Positions 43,845 to 64,000 of a stretch of 64,000 nt of DNA are shown here, piece by piece. The stretch is from contig JAQUBA010000001.1 of assembly GCA_028686985.1 (NCBI GenBank), forward strand, positions 81,194 through 145,193, given 5' to 3'. Position 1 is the stretch's first letter; every line of letters begins with the position of its first letter. The position numbers were made by a program, and so were the translations under genes. This DNA is from Candidatus Iainarchaeum sp. GTDB lineage: Archaea; Micrarchaeota; Micrarchaeia; Anstonellales; Bilamarchaeaceae. The notes under the pieces are model-generated. The model saw only the letters and a program-made list of their open reading frames with translations, was not told where the DNA came from and did not search any database.

Positions 43845-44942
43845 TTATCCTAAAACCAAATCCAAAAATTCATCCTCTATTTTGACAACCGCCAACTTCC
43901 TGCATGCGCACCCTTTTCCCAGAAGGGAAGCAAAGGAAGGCAACGTCCGCCCCCCATCCCCGCTAATCAATTCCTTTATGTAGGTGCCCGCATCCGCGAG
44001 TATGTCCGCGGAAACAAGTTCCCCATCCATTTTTGCATCCACCACTTCCGCGTGCCTCTCCCTCACCTTGTCCGCCCTCCTGTGCATAACCCTATTGGGC
44101 GTTTGTTGTTTCAGCATCTCGGAAAAGCCACTTATCCGTTCCAAATCCTCCTTCGTGGCTCCGCCCTCCACCTCAATCCACGCCCGGTATGTTTTCGGGA
44201 AATGGGAATCCGCGACCAATTCCACATCGCCCCTCCCAACCTTCTTCAAATCCGAAACCTCCACCTCCCCCCCAGCCGCAATTTCTTGTGCAACCTCAGC
44301 AAGGTTCGGCTTCCGGGATTCCGGATTAGTTATCTCCAGCACAAACGGCCTGCCGGCCGTATTAACCACATCCACGTCCTCTCTCCCGGATGCGTGCATG
44401 CAGAAGGAGCCCTTTGTCCTTTTCACAAACGGCTCCCCGATAATCTCCTCAACGGAGCGGTACATCCTTCCTTCCCCTCCGCAACGCTCACACCCTCTTC
44501 CGCCGCATTTCCTGCAATCCCATTTGGTCTGCGAGAGCCCTTCCTTCAATTTCCTGTAGCGCCCGAAGAACAGGAGCGGCTCAACCTCTCTCCGCGCCGT
44601 AAAAGACCTAAAATCAAACATTATCCTCCCGTCCCCTCCGGAAGGTTCGTACTTACGCCCGGAAATGGACGCAACCTTCCCGGAAAAATACCTGTTAGCA
44701 AATGTCTTGATGCTCTCTCCAGGCGAATAATCAAATGCCTTCTCCTCTGCGGCCAGAACTCCGCGCGGAATAGTGGTGGAAACAGAGAAGGAGTCCCAGT
44801 CCCCGCCAACAAGAAGGGCCCCTCTCTCCGCAAGCCCGCCCATCTTCGCCATCTTTCCGCCGCAGATTGAGCACTCGCCCAAAGGAAAAGGTTTCTCAAA
44901 GCGGGATGCACACTCCTTGCAGAGCGTAATCATGTGAACCAA
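43845..44942 (-). CDS. pus10: tRNA pseudouridine(54/55) synthase Pus10
   Basis: N-terminal Zn ribbon CKEC...CSICGG, CRKCGGRGCERCGG, HASGREDVDV catalytic block, C-terminal YIKELISGDGGRT. Confidence 0.8.
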   Translation of the reverse strand: MVHMITLCKECASRFEKPFPLGECSICGGKMAKMGGLAERGALLVGGDWDSFSVSTTIPRGVLAAEEKAFDYSPGESIKTFANRYFSGKVASISGRKYEPSGGDGRIMFDFRSFTARREVEPLLFFGRYRKLKEGLSQTKWDCRKCGGRGCERCGGEGRMYRSVEEIIGEPFVKRTKGSFCMHASGREDVDVVNTAGRPFVLEITNPESRKPNLAEVAQEIAAGGEVEVSDLKKVGRGDVELVADSHFPKTYRAWIEVEGGATKEDLERISGFSEMLKQQTPNRVMHRRADKVRERHAEVVDAKMDGELVSADILADAGTYIKELISGDGGRTLPSFASLLGKGCACRKLAVVKIEDEFLDLVLG

Positions 44943-44970
44943 ACCTCCGCATACATCGCTCCGGTTTGGT

Positions 44971-45375
44971 TCATTTCTTCACTTTCTTGAACTTGAAGCC
45001 GTAGTGGATTAGCCCCTCAGGGTCGTTGCTCTGTATCTTCCTGAAGACCATCTCCACCTCGTCCCCTATCTGCATGTCCTTCTTCAGCACGTCCACAATC
45101 TCCCCGGTGCAGCGCGCCCCTTCGGCCAACTCCACGATTGCCATCACGTAGGGGATCTGCTCCTCAAAGCCCGCAGGCGGCGCGTGGATTTCCGTGAATG
45201 AGAACACCCTTCCGCGCCCGGAGAACTGGTAAGACTCTATTTTCCCCTTCCTCCTGCATTTCGGGCAAACGTGCCTTGCAGGGAAATAATGGCTATTGCA
45301 GTTCTTGCACAAGCTCCCCAGAAGCCTGTACCTGTCCGGTATCTTCCTCCATGTGAGCGGAATGGATTCCTTCAT
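44971..45375 (-). CDS. DUF35 Zn-ribbon/OB-fold protein (scaffold of the archaeal thiolase/HMG-CoA synthase complex)
   Basis: CKNCNSHYFPARHVCPKC, followed by an OB-fold region. 0-nt spacer to the thiolase gene. Confidence 0.8.
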   Translation of the reverse strand: MKESIPLTWRKIPDRYRLLGSLCKNCNSHYFPARHVCPKCRRKGKIESYQFSGRGRVFSFTEIHAPPAGFEEQIPYVMAIVELAEGARCTGEIVDVLKKDMQIGDEVEMVFRKIQSNDPEGLIHYGFKFKKVKK

Positions 45376-47594: not shown

Positions 47595-47750
47595 TCATTC
47601 CTTCCTTCTCTTCCTCGCACTCGTATCAATATCCGGCTTATGCACAGCCCCCACCGGCCCCTGCTCCTCTTTAACCGGTATCATCTGGAGCCGGGAGAAT
47701 GCAAGCGTTTTACCATAGGATTTCTGCGCTTCGGCCATATGGACAACCAT
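47595..47750 (-). CDS. Candidate 51-aa small ORF between the HTH regulator and HMGCS
   Basis: The ATG directly follows the regulator TAG (TAGATG). It reads [54 protein letters not shown], ending 4 nt before the HMGCS ATG. No family recognised, so it may be non-coding leader. Confidence 0.25.
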
Positions 47751-48505: not shown

Positions 48506-48967
48506 TTAAAAGACGGAAATTCCATTCTCGGGGCCCGCCCTGGTGCCTTCCGGGCCATGCTTCCCGGCAGACATCCGGTCGCATGCGGCAATCTTCCTGT
48601 TCAGCACCTTCGCATACCCGCCCATTTCCAGGGCCAGCCCATACTGCTCGCGTGCCAGGGCAACCGCGCGCCCGGGTTGCCCGTTTGCCGCATCAAAGTA
48701 GCGGTCCCCCGCGATTTCATGCAACCTGCCCGCACGCCTTCTGTCATTCCTGCTATCCGAGGCGGCACGCGCAAAAGCTTCACCCGCACAGAACTCATAG
48801 CGCGCCTTTCTGCGTGCATCGGTTGCGCCCGCGGCGAGGGCGGCGAAATGTTTCCCGCGCTCAACATTGGAAAGCCCCTCCACCAGCACCTTCCTGCCGC
48901 GGTGGGCCCTTCCGTGCGGCTTATGGGCGGCAACCCTTCCCGCTTCCATGGCCCTGTGCTTTGCCAT
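48506..48967 (-). CDS. Hypothetical Ala/Arg/Gly-rich helical-repeat protein (paralogue P4, 153 aa)
   Basis: MAKHRAMEAGR...; repeated AG(E/D)x(F/Y) hairpin motif (CAGEAFARAA, IAGDRYFDAA). Preceded by AAGGGATTTGA-ATGGCA. Confidence 0.55.
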   Translation of the reverse strand: MAKHRAMEAGRVAAHKPHGRAHRGRKVLVEGLSNVERGKHFAALAAGATDARRKARYEFCAGEAFARAASDSRNDRRRAGRLHEIAGDRYFDAANGQPGRAVALAREQYGLALEMGGYAKVLNRKIAACDRMSAGKHGPEGTRAGPENGISVF

Positions 48968-48977
48968 TCAAATCCCT

Positions 48978-49727
48978 TCAGTATCCCAAATAACCCTCAT
49001 ACTGCGGTTCGGGCCTGCCGGTCACCTGCTCATAGGTGCCCACGAAATCTTGCTTTCCGGATTCCCTCTCCGCCTTCGCGTCCAGCCTTCCGGCCCTCCC
49101 AGGCTCTGTTTTCCTCACAAGGTTCGCGGCAAGCTCGTACTGCTTCCTCGCATCTCCGTGCCTCGTGGTATAGCCGCCTTCCGTGCCGTCCAGTGCCTTG
49201 CTGAAGGCGTCTCCCGCCCTCTCGCGCAGCCCGGAGGCCACGGATTTGTTCTTTGCGAGCGCAGCGGCCTTAGCGAACATTTCTCCTGCCCTTGCCATCC
49301 TTGCAAAGAACCTGGCGCGGAGGTAGTGCTCCCCGGCCTCCACAAAAAGGCCGAATGCCATCCCGGGCTTGTTGCGCTTCGCCGCCTCGGCCAGCTCCTT
49401 CAGCCTTATCGCGACATCGACAGTGGTCTTGATGGAGGATTTGGCCCGCCTTACGAGGGACGCAACTGCGGTTTCCTGCTTCCGCTCCCCCCCGCGGCCA
49501 AACCCGCGAAGGAGCCTCCGCATCTCCCGCCAGTTCCGCATGGACCCGTCCGCCAGCGCAAGTATTTCCGCTTTCTGGCCGGGGGTGAGGCGTCTGGCGA
49601 AATCCTGCCCCCCGAACCTCTCCCTCATGCGCCCGATTTCCCGTTTCAGCTGTCCATCGCTGCCAGCCGCCTTTTCCAGCTCATTGAGCAAATCCCCTCC
49701 AGCCGCAATAGTCCTTTGTTTTGCCAT
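48978..49727 (-). CDS. Hypothetical helical-repeat protein (paralogue P3, 249 aa)
   Basis: MAKQRTIAAGG...; AGEHYLRARFF, AGEMFAKAAAL, AGDAFSKAL. TGATG overlap with P2. Preceded by GAGGGGATTTTG-ATGGCA. Confidence 0.55.
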   Translation of the reverse strand: MAKQRTIAAGGDLLNELEKAAGSDGQLKREIGRMRERFGGQDFARRLTPGQKAEILALADGSMRNWREMRRLLRGFGRGGERKQETAVASLVRRAKSSIKTTVDVAIRLKELAEAAKRNKPGMAFGLFVEAGEHYLRARFFARMARAGEMFAKAAALAKNKSVASGLRERAGDAFSKALDGTEGGYTTRHGDARKQYELAANLVRKTEPGRAGRLDAKAERESGKQDFVGTYEQVTGRPEPQYEGYLGY

Positions 49728-50110
49728 CAAAATCCCCTCATTCCCCCCCAGTTCGCCGCGAGCTCCGCGGGAGTCAGCCCGTAGGTCTCAATCAGCACTT
49801 CCGCCCTTTCCCTCAGCATCTCGGCCTGTTTCTTGAACCTCTCCATGCCTTCCCCGAGCGTGCCCACCATCAGCCAGCACCGGGCGATGTTGCCTGCCGC
49901 CCTCCTGATTTCGTATTCCGGGTATCCGCAGTCTTTCATCCTCACCCTCTTCCCAGGATTGCGGGCCATCTCTATCTCAAGGACAAACCTCTCGGTGCAG
50001 CTTCCCCCGGTAATCCTTCTGCGGTAGGCCTCCCCTGCGGAGCGGATTGCTGCCGCGCCCTGCACCCCCACAACCGGCTCTTTTCCAACGGTTCTAGTTT
50101 CAAGTGCCAT
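49727..50110 (-). CDS. Hypothetical protein (paralogue P2, 127 aa)
   Basis: MALETRTVGKE...SAGEAYRRR...LIETYGLTPAELAAN. Internal ATG 10 nt after the P1 stop. Preceded by TAAGGGATTTGGC-ATGGCA. Confidence 0.5.
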   Translation of the reverse strand: MALETRTVGKEPVVGVQGAAAIRSAGEAYRRRITGGSCTERFVLEIEMARNPGKRVRMKDCGYPEYEIRRAAGNIARCWLMVGTLGEGMERFKKQAEMLRERAEVLIETYGLTPAELAANWGGMRGF

Positions 50111-50120
50111 GCCAAATCCC

Positions 50121-50894
50121 TTATGCCTTAAGCTCGTCCACTTCCTGCATGCTGTCCCCCAGCCTGTAGCGGAGATTGTTGTTGATGTGCTCCAGCACCA
50201 TCCGGTCTTCAAGCAGCTGGGGCGCATGCTTCAGCATGACAGCACGCAGCGAGGAAATGAATTCCGGCGCGGTCTGGCCGCAGTATTCCGGGGCTTTCTT
50301 CCGGAAAACCGCGATTATTGCCGCAACTTCCGCCTCCTCCGCGCTTAGCCCGTGCTTTTCAACCACTGCCTGCCCTGCCTCAGGGTATTGCTGCATCCCG
50401 GCCGCGGCTTCGAGTATTCCCGCAAAATTGATTCCCTTGGGGAAAAGCCCGTTGCTCACGTATGCCTCCATTTGTTTCCTGCTTGTGGGTTCCGAAGCCG
50501 AGTGGGTAGCAAGAACCACGATTGCGAGCCTTTTGGTCCTTTTCAATTCCGAAGCGGCGTCCAGCCCGTAGGTCCTGACGAGGGCATCGGCCTTCTCGTC
50601 CTCGCCGCGGCTCCTCCAGAGCCCGGCGACCTCCGCCGCAGCCTCGAGTATTCGGTGTTCGGCCTCTTTGGAATCTATCCTCCTGGAAGGGTCGGTTGCC
50701 ATAATCCTTCTCGTAATATAATAAATCTCGCGGCCAAGCCTTGTGAAATCCTGCACTTCGCCGCCAACGCGTGCCATGGGTTCGCCCGCCGCTCCTCCCC
50801 AGCGCCCAAGAGGCTTGGGGGATTGGCTCCCGCATCGCCTTTCTTCCGGCCGCTTCCCGGCCCCATCCTTTCCTGCGAATCCTTGTTTTGCCAT
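50121..50894 (-). CDS. Hypothetical protein (paralogue P1, 257 aa)
   Basis: MAKQGFAGKDG...LVRTYGLDAASELKR...VEKHGLSAEEAEVAA. Preceded by GGGGTTTCTAT-ATGGCA and a TATA-like TTTAATAA about 35 nt upstream. Confidence 0.55.
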   Translation of the reverse strand: MAKQGFAGKDGAGKRPEERRCGSQSPKPLGRWGGAAGEPMARVGGEVQDFTRLGREIYYITRRIMATDPSRRIDSKEAEHRILEAAAEVAGLWRSRGEDEKADALVRTYGLDAASELKRTKRLAIVVLATHSASEPTSRKQMEAYVSNGLFPKGINFAGILEAAAGMQQYPEAGQAVVEKHGLSAEEAEVAAIIAVFRKKAPEYCGQTAPEFISSLRAVMLKHAPQLLEDRMVLEHINNNLRYRLGDSMQEVDELKA

Positions 50895-51015
50895 ATAGAA
50901 ACCCCAGCTTCTTTATGTGCCAAAATCCTTATTAAACAGATTATTAGAGATAGGACAACATAACAAAACGGCAAAACAGCATAATTAGGATAAGATAAAA
51001 GGAAAAATTGCCGCC

Positions 51016-51246
51016 TCACTCGTCGTCCGCGGCAAGCTCTACCATCTTCATCGTGATTCTCTTCTTTTCCTTCTTCGCCCTCATGACGAAGTACTCCCCG
51101 CCCTTCAGGTTCAGGGAATCCCTTATCTCCCGGGGTATCGAAACATAATAAGACGTCCCGTCAGGCCTGAGATAGCCCTTCACGAGGACCATTTTCGAAT
51201 ACTTTTCCGGCTTTTTGGTCGTTTCATCGTTTTTCATGTCATGCAC
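51016..51246 (-). CDS. SpoVT/AbrB-domain DNA-binding protein (76 aa)
   Basis: YYVSIPREIRDSLNLKGGEYFVM is the swapped-hairpin AbrB signature. TATA-like TTAAATATA about 30 nt upstream. Confidence 0.65.
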   Translation of the reverse strand: MHDMKNDETTKKPEKYSKMVLVKGYLRPDGTSYYVSIPREIRDSLNLKGGEYFVMRAKKEKKRITMKMVELAADDE

Positions 51247-51354
51247 CTTATGCTTAATATGTTATGCATGCTGGTTATATTTAATGGTATGTATCGTAAT
51301 AACATAATACGCCTGAGCAGCAAGGTGCAATTATCGGTAATTTATGCCGGAAAA

Positions 51355-51894
51355 TCAGAGGTCGTCCAAATCCAGGTCGTACCCCGATAGGCTAAGATCA
51401 AGAGAGAGGTTCGCCCTGGGCATTATCCTGGCATATCCCTTTATGGAGCTGGAAAGCAAATCGTACGCGAATTTGTACCTGTTCACCATGTATTCGCCCT
51501 CCCTCTCGGTGGGGGCCGCCCCTCCGGAAAGGAAGGAATCGCAGCGGGAGAGGTATTCCTCGGCCACCTCCAGCGGCGTCCTTGCCATGGCGGCCCAACC
51601 CCCAATCCTTTCGCGTTCCTCGGGGCCGCACCTCTCCATGTCGCCGTTCGCCCTGAAAATGAGGCGATTCACTATCCTCTTCAGCGCATAAATGGAATCC
51701 CTGAAGGTGCGCACATCATCCATGGTGGGGATGCCCTGCGGATACGGCATTCTGTTCACTTCCCCGTCGGGGCCCAGAACCCTCAGCCTGGGCACGCCTA
51801 TGCATGAGGGGAGCGCGAGGAGGGCTGCCGAGGCTAGCGCCCCGCGGAGGAGTTCCCTGCGCGTAATGCCGGCGGCATTTTTGATTGTGTTCAT
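51355..51894 (-). CDS. Hypothetical Tat-signal lipoprotein
   Basis: ITRRELLRGALASAALLALPSC is a twin-arginine motif plus lipobox Cys. TATATAAA about 28 nt upstream. Confidence 0.6.
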   Translation of the reverse strand: MNTIKNAAGITRRELLRGALASAALLALPSCIGVPRLRVLGPDGEVNRMPYPQGIPTMDDVRTFRDSIYALKRIVNRLIFRANGDMERCGPEERERIGGWAAMARTPLEVAEEYLSRCDSFLSGGAAPTEREGEYMVNRYKFAYDLLSSSIKGYARIMPRANLSLDLSLSGYDLDLDDL

Positions 51895-51999
51895 AATTAT
51901 ACTTGTGTGTAATAAGATTTATATACCCGATTCATCCGGGCTCCGCCGTGTTTTTAATATAATGTGGCGCGATTAGGTGCATAAAGCGGAAAACCGCTG

Positions 52000-52470
52000 A
52001 TGGTGCAGGATGATTTTATGGCTTTCAGGCAGGATGTCAGGGAGGTTCGGGGTCCAGGGAAATGCGCGGAATGTGCAATTGGAGGCCCATTGCTCGCATC
52101 TCCACCCGCAAAGCCCAGGAGCCGGGAGGAGGAAGTGAAGCTTTTTGGGCAGCTCATGGCTGCGATAAGAACCTTGGATGTGGACGGCGTGAGGACTGCC
52201 GTTTCTGCCGGAGCGAAATTGGACGGCAGGGATGAGCGGGGCCGTAGGCCTCTTTTCCTGGTCCGGGAGATGGATGACAGCCTTGATCATGCATTTGCTG
52301 AAATCGGGCGCAGAAGCGGGGGCGGAGTCGTTGATGCCGTGCTAGTCGCAGTGGATCCAGAACCCGGGCGGGAACCCGCAACGTTGCCCAAGCTTGGCAC
52401 CATTCTTGGTGAGATGGAAAAACTCGATAAGATAAGAGACATTCTTGAGCATCACGGGGCGGCGGAATAG
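52000..52470 (+). CDS. Hypothetical protein with one ankyrin-like repeat
   Basis: LMAAIRTLDVDGVRTAVSAGAKLDGRDERGRRPLF. Host-like codon usage. Confidence 0.45.
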   Translation: MVQDDFMAFRQDVREVRGPGKCAECAIGGPLLASPPAKPRSREEEVKLFGQLMAAIRTLDVDGVRTAVSAGAKLDGRDERGRRPLFLVREMDDSLDHAFAEIGRRSGGGVVDAVLVAVDPEPGREPATLPKLGTILGEMEKLDKIRDILEHHGAAE

Positions 52471-52541
52471 CCCGTTTCTCCCTTCCAGCTCCCCCCGCCG
52501 CCTTTAATATCCTTTTCAAAGAAAATCCCGCAGGTGACAAT

Positions 52542-63904: not shown

Positions 63905-64000
63905 TGGGCCCATGGAGATTTGAACTCCAGACCTACGGCTGTCTTAGAACCTGTTGTATTAGAGCAGGCCATATAAGACCGTCGCTCTAACCAGCCTGAG
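63905..64000 (-). tRNA. tRNA-Ile (anticodon UAU) with a 31-nt canonical 37/38 intron; 5' end (about 10 nt) truncated by the window edge
   Basis: Reverse complement ...CTCAGGCTGGTTAGAGCG-ACGGT-CTTATA[TGGCCTGCTCTAATACAACAGGTTCTAAGAC]A-GCCGT-AGGTC-TGGAGTTCAAATCTCCA-TGGGCCC-A. Intron 63941..63971; anticodon at 63973..63975. Confidence 0.75.

Follow-up and report, generated by a model that had tools for sequence, protein, structure and literature searches.

A putative cassette operon encoding two all-helical protein families in a variable slot of a Micrarchaeia archaeon

Integron arrays are composed of promoterless single-gene cassettes in a promoter-proximal arrangement, each with a short conserved element and each gained or lost as a unit. 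The locus analyzed here, in which an AbrB-like gene heads an array of four ORFs (P1 to P4), shares these properties. It differs in that its junction is a translation-initiation region of about 15 nt, unstructured as RNA, not an attC hairpin, and in carrying paralogues of two families in place of unrelated cargo. Neither attC in the junction RNA nor a tyrosine-recombinase integrase among the annotated neighbours (DHS, lipoprotein, HTH, HMGS and thiolase genes) was found, and assignment to the integron cassette arrays was rejected. Acr-Aca loci likewise combine a conserved small DNA-binding protein (in the island a predicted one) and a conserved promoter with rapidly changing small ORFans; the island, in contrast, is chromosomal, lies between housekeeping genes of the cell without mobile-element context or IMG/VR relatives, and encodes larger, repeat-like proteins. 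A viral or prophage gene family was not recognized either: no tblastn-confirmed relative of the P3-type proteins or of P2 was found in IMG/VR (2.9 million contigs), and the PHROGs matches were weak (E 0.012-0.076), all to families of unknown function.

The head gene matches the looped-hinge-helix models of AbrB/SpoVT factors and MazE-type antitoxins at scores just under the cut-offs. Unlike a MazE-type antitoxin it has no cognate toxin beside it, and its DNA binding is a prediction. The locus was not classed as a type II toxin-antitoxin module, since no co-transcribed neighbour belongs to a known toxin family and the array lies beyond a 121-nt gap with its own putative promoter. No match to toxin families (PIN, MazF, Doc, RelE) was obtained with Pfam, NCBIfam or PADLOC for P1-P4 and six relatives; for 10 proteins PADLOC returned 0 families, and known anti-phage defence was likewise discarded.

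At the protein level, P3 and P4 resemble TPR/SNAP-like repeat proteins (consensus TPR, kinesin light chain, LGN, alpha-SNAP, BtubC) in forming antiparallel helix-pair arrays and in the A-G-(D/E)-x-(F/Y)-x-x-A signature, which their relatives also carry. They differ in that they reach no Pfam TPR or SNAP model, are short (150-320 aa for proteins of this type), have extra basic N-terminal modules and occur in one Micrarchaeia clade. The effector families of symbionts and pathogens (Sel1-like, TPR, ankyrin) are also lineage-specific helical-repeat multigene families in strain-variable regions, here of a reduced symbiont genome, and an ankyrin-repeat gene occupies the same slot in one relative. 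The island differs from them in that no signal peptide was seen by eye and no secretion system was present among the genes scanned, and in that its genes form a single coupled operon and have a junction in common; an effector role is putative here.

Location, layout and coding status

The window (the whole 64-kb stretch of DNA analyzed) is from a Micrarchaeia (DPANN) archaeon, and the block lies in it between the deoxyhypusine synthase (DHS) gene and the HTH/HMG-CoA synthase genes (Table 1). That an AbrB-like gene precedes four ORFs (257, 127, 249 and 153 aa), all on the minus strand, had been proposed in a preliminary description. The four ORFs, their spacers (10, -1 and 10 nt) and the Ala, Arg, Glu and Gly enrichment of their products were verified, but the most likely start of the AbrB-like protein is the ATG at 51237, because its relatives start there and the alternative GTG lies inside the Shine-Dalgarno sequence AAGGTGCAT.

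Table 1. Features of the locus (positions in the window).
Feature	Position	Strand	Remarks
Accessory block (AbrB + array)	48521-51352	-	extent relative to the L015 empty site
AbrB-like gene	51016-51237; 51016-51246 if GTG	-	73 aa from ATG; 76 aa from GTG
Conserved putative promoter/leader	50895-50960	-	TGTTGT..TAATAATCTG.TTAATAAGGATTTTGGCACA.A.AGAA...GGGGTTTCT-ATG; ~66 nt
P1	50121-50894	-	257 aa
Junction 1 (P1-P2)	50111-50120	-	TAA-GGGATTTGGC-ATGGCA; 10-nt spacer with cassette-specific SD variant
P2	49727-50110	-	127 aa
Junction 2 (P2-P3)	49728-49739	-	GAGGGGATTTTG-ATGGCA; P2 stop TGA overlaps P3 ATG by 1 nt
P3	48978-49727	-	249 aa
Junction 3 (P3-P4)	48968-48977	-	TGA-AGGGATTTGA-ATGGCA; 10-nt spacer
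P4	48506-48967	-	153 aa

In the related locus L015 the lipoprotein gene directly adjoins the HTH gene, and alignment with this empty site was used to set the right boundary of the island; the last codons and the stop of P4 fall within the conserved right flank. The DHS-HTH gap varies from 113 nt (L019) up to about 4.7 kb, and the slot holds other cargo in L012/L013 (a Fic/Doc-type Fic gene), L017 and L020. No further members of the families were found elsewhere in the window.

By codon score, the given frames of P1-P4 were the top of the six, the scores of P1 and P4 being low within the range seen for genes; GC content and codon usage of the locus are host-like. Long antisense ORFs are also present across the region. 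Of the cassette genes, P1, P2 and the C-terminal part of P3 were measured for substitution rates. The dN/dS was 0.13 for P1 (versus a second allele in GCA_028712065.1 and L001), 0.45 for P2 and 0.26 for the C-terminal part of P3, as compared with 0.02-0.04 for flanking genes. All three are under purifying selection, a test that had been set beforehand. The values do not establish diversifying selection, since dN/dS never exceeded 1 in the cassette genes measured; a dispensable island under relaxed constraint would give a similar picture.

The two protein families

The four proteins had been taken for mutual paralogues with an AG[ED]x[FY]xxA hairpin motif in each. They form instead two unrelated pairs, P1/P2 and P3/P4: profile-profile comparison of the two families gave nothing (probability 0.15%), and the motif is present in P3 (three times) and P4 (twice) only.

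P2 is a small helical protein defining the P2-like domain (core motif EEDIxEAAxxVAxCW..G..KAExLxxTYGL), which we consider a new small helical domain; it is 91% identical to L003 R_123. Over its full length P2 aligns, at 34% identity, to the first ~115 residues at the N-terminus of P1, and P1 is also homologous to L091 E_279, L093_138 and L094_114. P1 consists of a disordered Gly/Pro/Arg-rich N-terminus, a P2-like domain and an all-helical C-terminal extension; its AF2 model is of low confidence (pLDDT 53) and all helical, with residues 1-40 disordered. Among 1.84 billion cluster representatives the P1/P2 profile matched 12 proteins at E <= 0.001, one being the second P1 allele (P0001) and the other 11 matching in the P2-like domain only (10/11 are 76-138 aa long), and a search of 5.8 billion clusters with P1 gave a single match, at 96% identity. 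TAL-effector-like repeats were considered for P1/P2 and rejected, as no tandem repeats of 33-35 aa that each match the TALE repeat were found. A single short motif (vLxxTYGLxxEev) matches the TALE repeat, and each individual stretch has an i-E > 500; as we read the output, the whole-sequence E-value was built up from many weak matches to the target's repeats.

P3 and P4 have a TPR-like core in common. In P3 it follows an N-terminal module, N1 (residues 1-~85), and spans residues ~86-249; in P4 a short core follows a basic N-terminal module, N2 (AAHKPHGRAHRGR), which is also found in R_245x, R_258, D_242, P0006 and P0007. P4 is paralogous to P3, R_166, E_162, L093_165 and L094_168. The TPR/SNAP-like appearance noted previously held for this pair. 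Both proteins contain tandem helix-turn-helix hairpins with the small/large residue pattern of the TPR type, and the family profile matches consensus or designed TPR proteins (E 4e-4 to 0.05), as well as OGT and PEX5. The AF2 model of P3 (pLDDT 69) has 12 helices, of which those in residues 102-223 form hairpins, and its top 50 Foldseek matches are mostly TPR/SNAP/KLC/LGN structures (probability 0.9-1.0), with BtubC among the top; the scores are weak (best E 0.045, TM 0.2-0.58). Among curated sequence models, Pfam gave SNAP for P3 only (E 0.12) and none for P4, and NCBIfam had no match for either. The TPR likeness is thus weak by every score. A search with P3 gave three matches and the family profile A1 six, both counts including the window's own P3.

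The cassette families are confined to one narrow Micrarchaeia clade, with a handful of matches among billions of proteins. Homologues do exist, though very few, no match to a known housekeeping family was found, and the observation survived the refuting conditions that had been set for it. The block of unknowns is system-like, as had been suggested: P1-P4 constitute a lineage-specific system of two previously undescribed protein families.

Head gene, junctions and exchange of cassettes

The AbrB-like protein matched Pfam MazE_antitoxin PF04014 (E 4.4e-5, 23.8 bits; cut-off 24.7) and the TIGR01439 AbrB family (28.2 bits; cut-off 28.3), the matches covering the looped-hinge-helix core. Its PDB sequence matches are weak (E 0.04-0.09), to two small proteins, 7xi6 'C56' and 3o27, the latter presumably from an archaeal virus-plasmid. 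The protein is 92% identical in L003, with dN/dS 0.07 and dS similar to that of the flanks. The gene adjoins the array in L003, L091 and L093 and is absent from the empty site; it is a probable regulator heading the island, as judged from sequence. The 121-nt spacer between it and P1 contains a T-rich stretch and the conserved putative promoter/leader, so that AbrB probably forms a transcription unit of its own. The leader, which includes a TATA-like TTAATAA box and may act as a promoter, is nearly invariant in the alignment upstream of four different first cassettes (in the window, L003 and, twice, L091), and its leader part also lies ahead of the first cassette of L093 and of L094. AbrB and leader together head the arrays of the window, L003, L091 and L093; in L094 the conserved leader alone was seen. 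The locus was not found in any RNA run.

Each ORF starts with ATGGCA, as reported earlier, and does so behind GGG(G)(A)TTT; the elements are GGGGTTTCTAT (P1), AAGGGATTTGGC (P2), GAGGGGATTTTG (P3) and AAGGGATTTGA (P4). In the window, GGG[AG]?TTT-N1-5-ATGGC occurs at four sites, exactly the four cassette starts, versus a mean of 0.27 expected from 200 base-composition shuffles. The motif GGGGATTT differs by one mismatch from GGTGAT(TT), the Shine-Dalgarno sequence of the genome, and it is almost confined to cassette starts: the junction motif was found upstream of 16/24 cassettes and 1/48 other genes (p = 3e-9), and the usual GGTG/GTGA motif upstream of 3/24 and 23/48, respectively. Orthologous flanks of two related loci are among these counts, which makes the tests less than fully independent. 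At least five related arrays also have the junction where their cassettes start. The commonest Shine-Dalgarno context is GGTGAT and not the junction motif, and the distribution of the motif supports the proposed reuse of a ribosome-binding or coupling signal. The other suggestion, an RNA-processing structure, was not borne out, the three inter-cistronic junction RNAs showing no excess of folding over shuffled sequences (z +0.35 to +1.0).

The junction coincides with homology breakpoints and with the ends of a clean one-cassette indel, in support of the suggested footprint of cassette duplication. Between the window and L003 the flanking proteins are 95-98% identical, and L003 has two other genes in place of P1, a different N-module on P3 and a different body of P4; the homology blocks stop 10-26 nt past the junction ATGs. 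The C-terminal 164 aa of P3 are 84% identical to L003 R_245, and the N-terminal module that replaces N1 in R_245 resembles L007 D_302. L007 and L091 are exactly one cassette apart, with ATGGC at both of its boundaries. For P2 (versus L003) dS was 0.11 and for the flanks 0.65-0.9, which points to recent exchange. Over 17.8 kb aligned with GCA_028712065.1, 41 of the 103 differences are inside P1. Array composition differs in every lineage compared. At the sequence level, the junction marks points of cassette insertion, deletion or exchange; breakpoints at gene boundaries could partly reflect the survival of intact genes, rather than a preference of recombination for the junction.

Possible function and alternative explanations

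We favour, with some reservation, a lineage-restricted accessory operon in a variable slot, whose junction-shuffled cassettes encode two all-alpha families acting as scaffolds and partners in strain-specific recognition or conflict. The leader beside the AbrB-family protein, which may control it, would drive a polycistronic array in which each cassette is one gene with its own initiation region (the previous stop, about 10 nt with GGGGATTT, and ATGGCA). The 10-nt or overlapping spacing would couple translation, so that the products are made together. The junction would move along with a cassette on duplication, and cassettes and N-terminal modules would be inserted, deleted or exchanged at it, within and between closely related species, giving a different array in each lineage. 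The TPR-like proteins, often with a basic N-terminal module, may be protein- or peptide-binding scaffolds for the small partners expressed with them. The repertoire may be diversified because its role is in strain-specific recognition or conflict, between symbiont and host or between virus and host, and not in housekeeping; diversifying binding scaffolds with their partner proteins are our best guess as to function. As no signal peptide or hydrophobic membrane segment was seen on reading the sequences by eye, a role outside the cell would need some other export route.

An ordinary lineage-specific cytoplasmic complex (e.g., of TPR-scaffold assembly or chaperone factors), its content drifting neutrally in a recombination-prone dispensable slot and without a role in conflict or recognition, would agree with dN/dS values below 1, with the recurrence of P2-like and P4-like members in most arrays, as of a conserved core, with the lack of a visible export signal and with the use of TPR proteins as generic adaptors. 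We regard it as unlikely, since the block is missing in the close relative L015 and unrelated cargo takes its place in others, arrays differ from lineage to lineage, cassettes were exchanged between species (low dS) and divergent alleles were found together in one sample. A reading of P1-P4 as open frames that arose by chance in GC-rich DNA, with a non-coding repeat as the junction, is effectively refuted by the codon scores and the substitution pattern: the long antisense ORFs and the low-end scores of P1 and P4 would fit, but the given frames are the best of six, synonymous changes per site exceed non-synonymous ones, and intact homologous ORFs occur in at least six diverged arrays.

Rather improbable, in our view, is a remnant or cargo of a mobile element (an integrated virus or plasmid), such as an anti-defence-type ORFan array with an AbrB-fold regulator of the Acr-Aca kind. 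Small, fast-turnover ORFans behind a conserved promoter, beside a conserved small DNA-binding protein, suggest it, as do the weak PDB matches of AbrB and the uptake of a Fic gene by the slot in relatives. Against it stand the IMG/VR and PHROGs results, the absence of integrase, capsid and replication genes among the locus genes scanned, the host-like GC content and codon usage, and the flank-like dS and strong constraint of AbrB, as in vertical inheritance. A toxin-antitoxin or defence module, with an AbrB/MazE-fold antitoxin and downstream toxins or effectors, is more improbable still: the array contains no PIN, MazF, Doc or PADLOC match, is set apart from AbrB by its own promoter region, and with 3-7 helical-repeat genes is unlike two-gene modules. 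The borderline MazE_antitoxin/AbrB matches speak for such a module, as does the frequency of toxin-antitoxin and defence genes in variable islands, the Fic/Doc-type gene of L012/L013 being an example.

DPANN archaea depend on host cells. To our knowledge, the genes that set their partner specificity are almost entirely unknown; lineage-specific 'dark matter' genes are where they will probably be found. A bolder form of the favoured reading, which we hold to be doubtful, is that of a system by which a DPANN symbiont diversifies through recombination, and in which reshuffled intracellular adaptors or effectors decide host-cell or virus compatibility. The regulator and promoter would stay fixed, and the cassettes behind them would be reshuffled time and again at a translation-initiation junction private to them. 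These cassettes, for TPR-like binders and small P2-like partners that share a basic N-terminal leader, would be exchanged between co-occurring species and give each strain its own repertoire. Were it true, the locus would be a functional analogue of antigenic-variation or effector-repertoire loci built from two previously undescribed families. A repertoire correlated with host or virus range would supply a mechanism, and with it a genetic marker, for specificity at the strain level in Micrarchaeia. Even otherwise, the private Shine-Dalgarno-variant junction would be a clean example of an initiation region inherited with duplicates and reused as a recombination boundary. The locus is a tractable candidate, being a compact putative operon with a recognizable putative regulator and promoter, two new families under selection and clearly delimited units of gain and loss. 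Coexisting variants have already been seen in natural populations: the same landfill metagenomes hold both P1 alleles and an R-type junction.

Gene layout, coding status and selection

The locus is a genuine operon, restricted to one lineage and under selection, whose proteins fall into two new all-alpha families. An AbrB-like gene is followed by four ORFs, P1 to P4, with spacers of 10 nt (P1-P2), -1 nt (P2-P3) and 10 nt (P3-P4). All four start with ATGGCA, preceded in turn by GGGGTTTCTAT, AAGGGATTTGGC, GAGGGGATTTTG and AAGGGATTTGA. The AbrB start is most likely the ATG at 51237, giving 73 aa, since orthologues start there and the GTG sits within the SD AAGGTGCAT.

Features of the locus, its surroundings and related loci
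Feature	Coordinates	Strand	Length
AbrB-like ORF	window, within 48506-51246	minus	76 aa (from GTG)
P1	window 50121-50894	minus	257 aa
P2	window 49727-50110	minus	127 aa
P3	window 48978-49727	minus	249 aa
P4	window 48506-48967	minus	153 aa
Promoter/leader	window 50895-50960		~66 nt
Promoter/leader copies	L091 2900-2956 and 3780-3838		
P2 counterpart in R	L003 9598-9969		
Tat-signal lipoprotein gene	window 51355-51894	minus	
ORF adjoining lipoprotein gene	window 52000-52470	plus	156 aa
Small ORF between HTH and HMG-CoA synthase genes	window 47595-47750	minus	51 aa
Pus10-like gene	window 43845-44942	minus	
Fic-domain protein	L012 57-692; L013 84-998 (with a 321-aa unknown)		
Ankyrin-repeat protein	L017 2158-2973		
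tRNA-Ile call	window 63906-63996	minus	91 nt

Codon usage was scored as log-odds, using 24 long ORFs of the window as the training set. For every gene the frame listed here ranked first of six (scores 0.18-0.42, against 0.25-0.78 for training genes and -0.2 to -0.6 for antisense ORFs). P3 had no match among the RNA runs searched.

Over 17.8 kb, contig JAQTQV010000005.1 of GCA_028712065.1 matches the window at 99.4% identity, and it encodes identical P2, P3 and P4. P1 holds 41 of the 103 differences (pS 0.155, pN 0.022, dN/dS 0.13), and this second P1 allele is also found in Logan contig L001. Another 21 of the 103 fall in a 500-nt bin (window 44500-45000) at the Pus10-like gene, a second local divergence hotspot that suggests another recombination import.

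The window was also compared with a syntenic relative (R, loci L003/L010). Flanking genes showed dS 0.65-0.90 and dN/dS 0.02-0.04, AbrB dS 0.61 and dN/dS 0.07, the shared C-terminal part of P3 dS 0.34 and dN/dS 0.26, and P2 dS 0.11 and dN/dS 0.45. P4 yielded no dN/dS, because it is identical in GCA_028712065.1 and its body has no alignable counterpart in R. The measured genes (P4 left out) therefore encode proteins and evolve under purifying, though relaxed, selection. The dS of P2 is about six-fold below that of the flanking housekeeping genes, which points to recent transfer of one cassette (a gene of such an array) between species, or to constraint on silent sites. As silent-site divergence is far below that of the surrounding genome, recent exchange between the window species and the R species is the simplest explanation for P2 and part of P3.

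Two unrelated protein families

The preliminary description of the block at 48506-51246 was confirmed overall, with corrections to the AbrB start, the scope of one motif and the paralogy of the genes. It had treated P1-P4 as four paralogues; by profile-profile comparison they are two pairs from unrelated families (hhalign probability 0.15% for P1/P2 against P3/P4), and AG(E/D)x(F/Y)xxA, assigned to all four, occurs in P3 and P4 only. No further copies of the P1-P4 families were found in the 64-kb window, and the results listed by literature searches included no description of the family.

Over its full length, P2 aligns to residues ~1-115 of P1 (34% identity). Among 5.8 billion clusters, P1 had a single match, a 96%-identical allele. 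An exhaustive HMM search of 1.84 billion representatives with the P1/P2 profile gave 12 proteins at E <= 0.001, namely the second P1 allele (P0001) and 11 that cover the P2-like domain only (ten of 76-138 aa, one of 279 aa). The core motif of that domain is ..EEDIxEAAxxVAxCW..G..KAExLxxTYGL.., and all 14 P2-like members gave only scattered Pfam matches (E > 0.006). A TAL-effector match of P2 (E 1e-11) represents one short motif summed over the target's many repeats; the lead was dropped because no single stretch was significant. The AlphaFold2 model of P1 (pLDDT 53, Foldseek probabilities <= 0.12) was too poor for use in fold assignment.

P3 and P4 form part of a TPR-like paralogue network with the common core AGExFxxAA...ASxLxERAGDxFxxA...QYxLAAxLVRKTDPxRAxxLxxK. 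P3 gave three matches and a profile of ten paralogues gave six, the window's own P3 being included in both; with a narrower family alignment (A2), a profile search of genome contigs found one species genome only. Against the PDB, the family profile matched consensus/designed TPR proteins, OGT, PEX5 and SNAP (E from 4e-4 upward). The AlphaFold2 model of P3 (pLDDT 69) consists of helical hairpins throughout, and its best structural matches, with weak E-values, were TPR/SNAP/KLC/LGN/BtubC proteins.

Many cassettes of both families (e.g. P4 residues 7-34; L003, L091, L093, L094) start with MA(K/E)xR... and carry, ~15-25 residues in, a basic motif (APRRR, P[KH]RR, KPHGRKHRGR or APPxRR). The motif could be a leader or recognition element common to them, or an effect of Arg-rich composition.

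Junction element and cassette mosaicism

The cassettes carry a private SD-variant junction ahead of their starts. The usual SD of the organism is GGTGAT(T), 3-6 nt ahead of the start; GGGGATTT and GGTGATTT differ at one position, and the junction GGGGAUUU would pair with the anti-SD with one mismatch. The regex GGG[AG]?TTT-N1-5-ATGGC matched the four cassette starts and no other site in the 64-kb window (shuffle mean 0.27). Its matches in related loci (L003 five, L091 four, L007 two, L008 and L009 one each) are all cassette starts; the array-less relatives L012, L014 and L015 had no site, and 659 kb of more distant relatives had six. In four loci, the junction was upstream of 16/24 cassettes versus 1/48 other genes (p = 3e-9), GGTG/GTGA upstream of 3/24 versus 23/48, and an ATGGC start was present in 15/24 versus 6/48, counts that are not fully independent because the flanks of two loci are orthologous.

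The commonest layout is stop, 10 nt, ATG, and this fixed short spacing may provide translational coupling. RNAs of the three inter-cistronic junctions did not fold more stably than shuffles (z +0.35 to +1.0); among the junction RNAs folded, the P1 leader alone formed a hairpin, a weak one (z -1.8). Unstructured junctions fit an open initiation region and argue against a processing hairpin, so the RNA-processing site offered initially as one option is abandoned. The element is not the commonest SD context either, and its reading as a reused ribosome-binding site and duplication footprint is supported. Our conclusion is that the junction serves as the translation-initiation region of the cassettes themselves and is passed on at every duplication.

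The array is a cassette-wise mosaic. Flanking proteins of the window version (W) and R are 95-98% identical, and the island DNA shows homology in separate blocks: AbrB (88.6%); the leader, continuing 10 nt into P1; P2 (92.5%, stopping 13 nt into P3); the C-terminal part of P3 with the following junction, stopping 26 nt into P4; and the HTH flank. R lacks any counterpart of the P1 body, the N-terminal module of P3 or the P4 body. At the N-terminus, R_245 is similar to P4, and P3 is similar to D_302 of L007. L007 and L091 are 89-93% identical over two neighbouring cassettes; what sets them apart is a single 737-nt cassette (the D_242 gene) with SD-ATGGC at both ends, present in one and absent from the other. 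This cassette is 78% identical to that of R_245, junction included. In landfill runs both P1 alleles occurred together in one sample, and the R-type junction of P2 to N2 (the basic N-terminal module, as in P4) in another. A contig of run X4 that resembled a P3 deletion is no deletion; it is arranged as in L003, with an N2-type cassette after P2. Judged by the W-R blocks, the L007-L091 indel and the coexisting variants, it is therefore junction-bounded cassettes that are gained, lost and exchanged as units. The junction may be preferred mechanistically for recombination, or may merely be the breakpoint of viable products.

Most array versions contain P2-like and P4-like members. R_123 is the P2 counterpart (91% identity) and R_245 combines the N2 module with the P3 core. 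The putative promoter/leader, with a TATA-like TTAATAA box, is nearly invariant before whichever cassette is first. Aligned copies come from W, L003 and L091 (two copies); in L093 and L094 the leader portion likewise lies ahead of the first cassette. The L091 copies lie ahead of the R_100-like gene upstream of AbrB and ahead of the first cassette downstream; AbrB of L091 was called at just 55 aa and may be truncated.

Array versions and content of the interval between the deoxyhypusine synthase (DHS) and HTH genes
Locus	DHS-HTH gap	Content
W	~4.5-4.7 kb (W and R)	AbrB, P1-P2-P3-P4
R	~4.5-4.7 kb (W and R)	AbrB, R_100, R_258, R_123, R_245, R_166, R_214
L091		R_100-like, AbrB, P2-like, E_323, P1-like (E_279), E_301, E_190, P4-like, then HTH
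L093		lipoprotein gene, AbrB, seven cassettes
L094 (GCA_026396305.1)		three cassettes
L007, L008, L009		array fragments
L019	113 nt	
L015	~1.2 kb	lipoprotein gene abutting HTH; no AbrB, no array
L017	~2 kb	Lrp-like regulator, ankyrin-repeat protein
L020	~2.7 kb	membrane protein, 456-aa unknown
L012/L013		Fic-domain protein and 321-aa unknown directly upstream of HTH; contigs end before DHS

Genomic slot and interpretation

The array occupies a slot of varying content in a DPANN genome (class Micrarchaeia, as for R, which lies on a 1.03-Mb contig), among archaeal housekeeping genes (HMG-CoA synthase, thiolase, a DUF35-type protein, Pus10, DHS and primase). Runs containing the locus are landfill metagenomes. 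A slot survey recovered 80 loci via the conserved HTH protein, and only two had cassette-family members, L011 (98% HTH identity; same contig as L006, R arrangement) and L014 (93%). L012 and L013 (94%) have other cargo in place of cassettes, and no cassette family was found in the ~2 kb available upstream of HTH. The variable zone is the entire DHS-HTH interval, of which the array is part. Alignment to the empty site of L015 placed the right end of the island within the last codons of P4; TTTCCG, considered as a short direct repeat at the island ends, was too weak to call. The Fic-domain protein carries an HPFVDGNGR motif. The ankyrin-repeat protein of the more distant relative L017, beside an Lrp/AsnC-like regulator between DHS and HTH, is a different kind of repeat protein at a position equivalent to the array.

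In kind, the locus is a hypervariable island with a multigene family of repeat proteins; its cassette architecture is unusual. AbrB would regulate the conserved promoter, and the array products would be made together and interact, as TPR-like scaffolds binding small partners. A role in strain-specific recognition or conflict may be the reason why the repertoire has diversified. Spurious ORFs are effectively excluded, given the codon scores and dN/dS values. A rival and less likely reading is a complex of ordinary kind, specific to the lineage, whose gene content drifts in a slot that the cell can do without; dN/dS below 1 fits it, and the absence of the block from L015 speaks against it. An unlikely one is a TA or defence module; the AbrB-like protein matches AbrB/MazE models at borderline scores, and scans of P1-P4 and six relatives against Pfam, PHROGs, PADLOC and NCBIfam returned no family. 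Mobile-element or anti-defence cargo is also an unlikely reading; no relatives were found in IMG/VR, and a viral origin was rejected on that ground.

The Tat-signal lipoprotein gene directly upstream of AbrB is hypervariable in its own right, with only 28% identity between the window and L003. L003 lacks the ORF adjoining it, and 51364-52492 is missing from one landfill contig. On the other side, the first ~25 residues of the small ORF are identical in L003 (47 aa there), the tail is diverged, and L012 has a more diverged counterpart; it could encode a genuine small protein or a leader peptide. Right at the window's end, ARAGORN called a tRNA-Ile with the unusual anticodon AAT, not reported by Rfam at the gathering threshold; the call could be false, or the tRNA could contain an intron.
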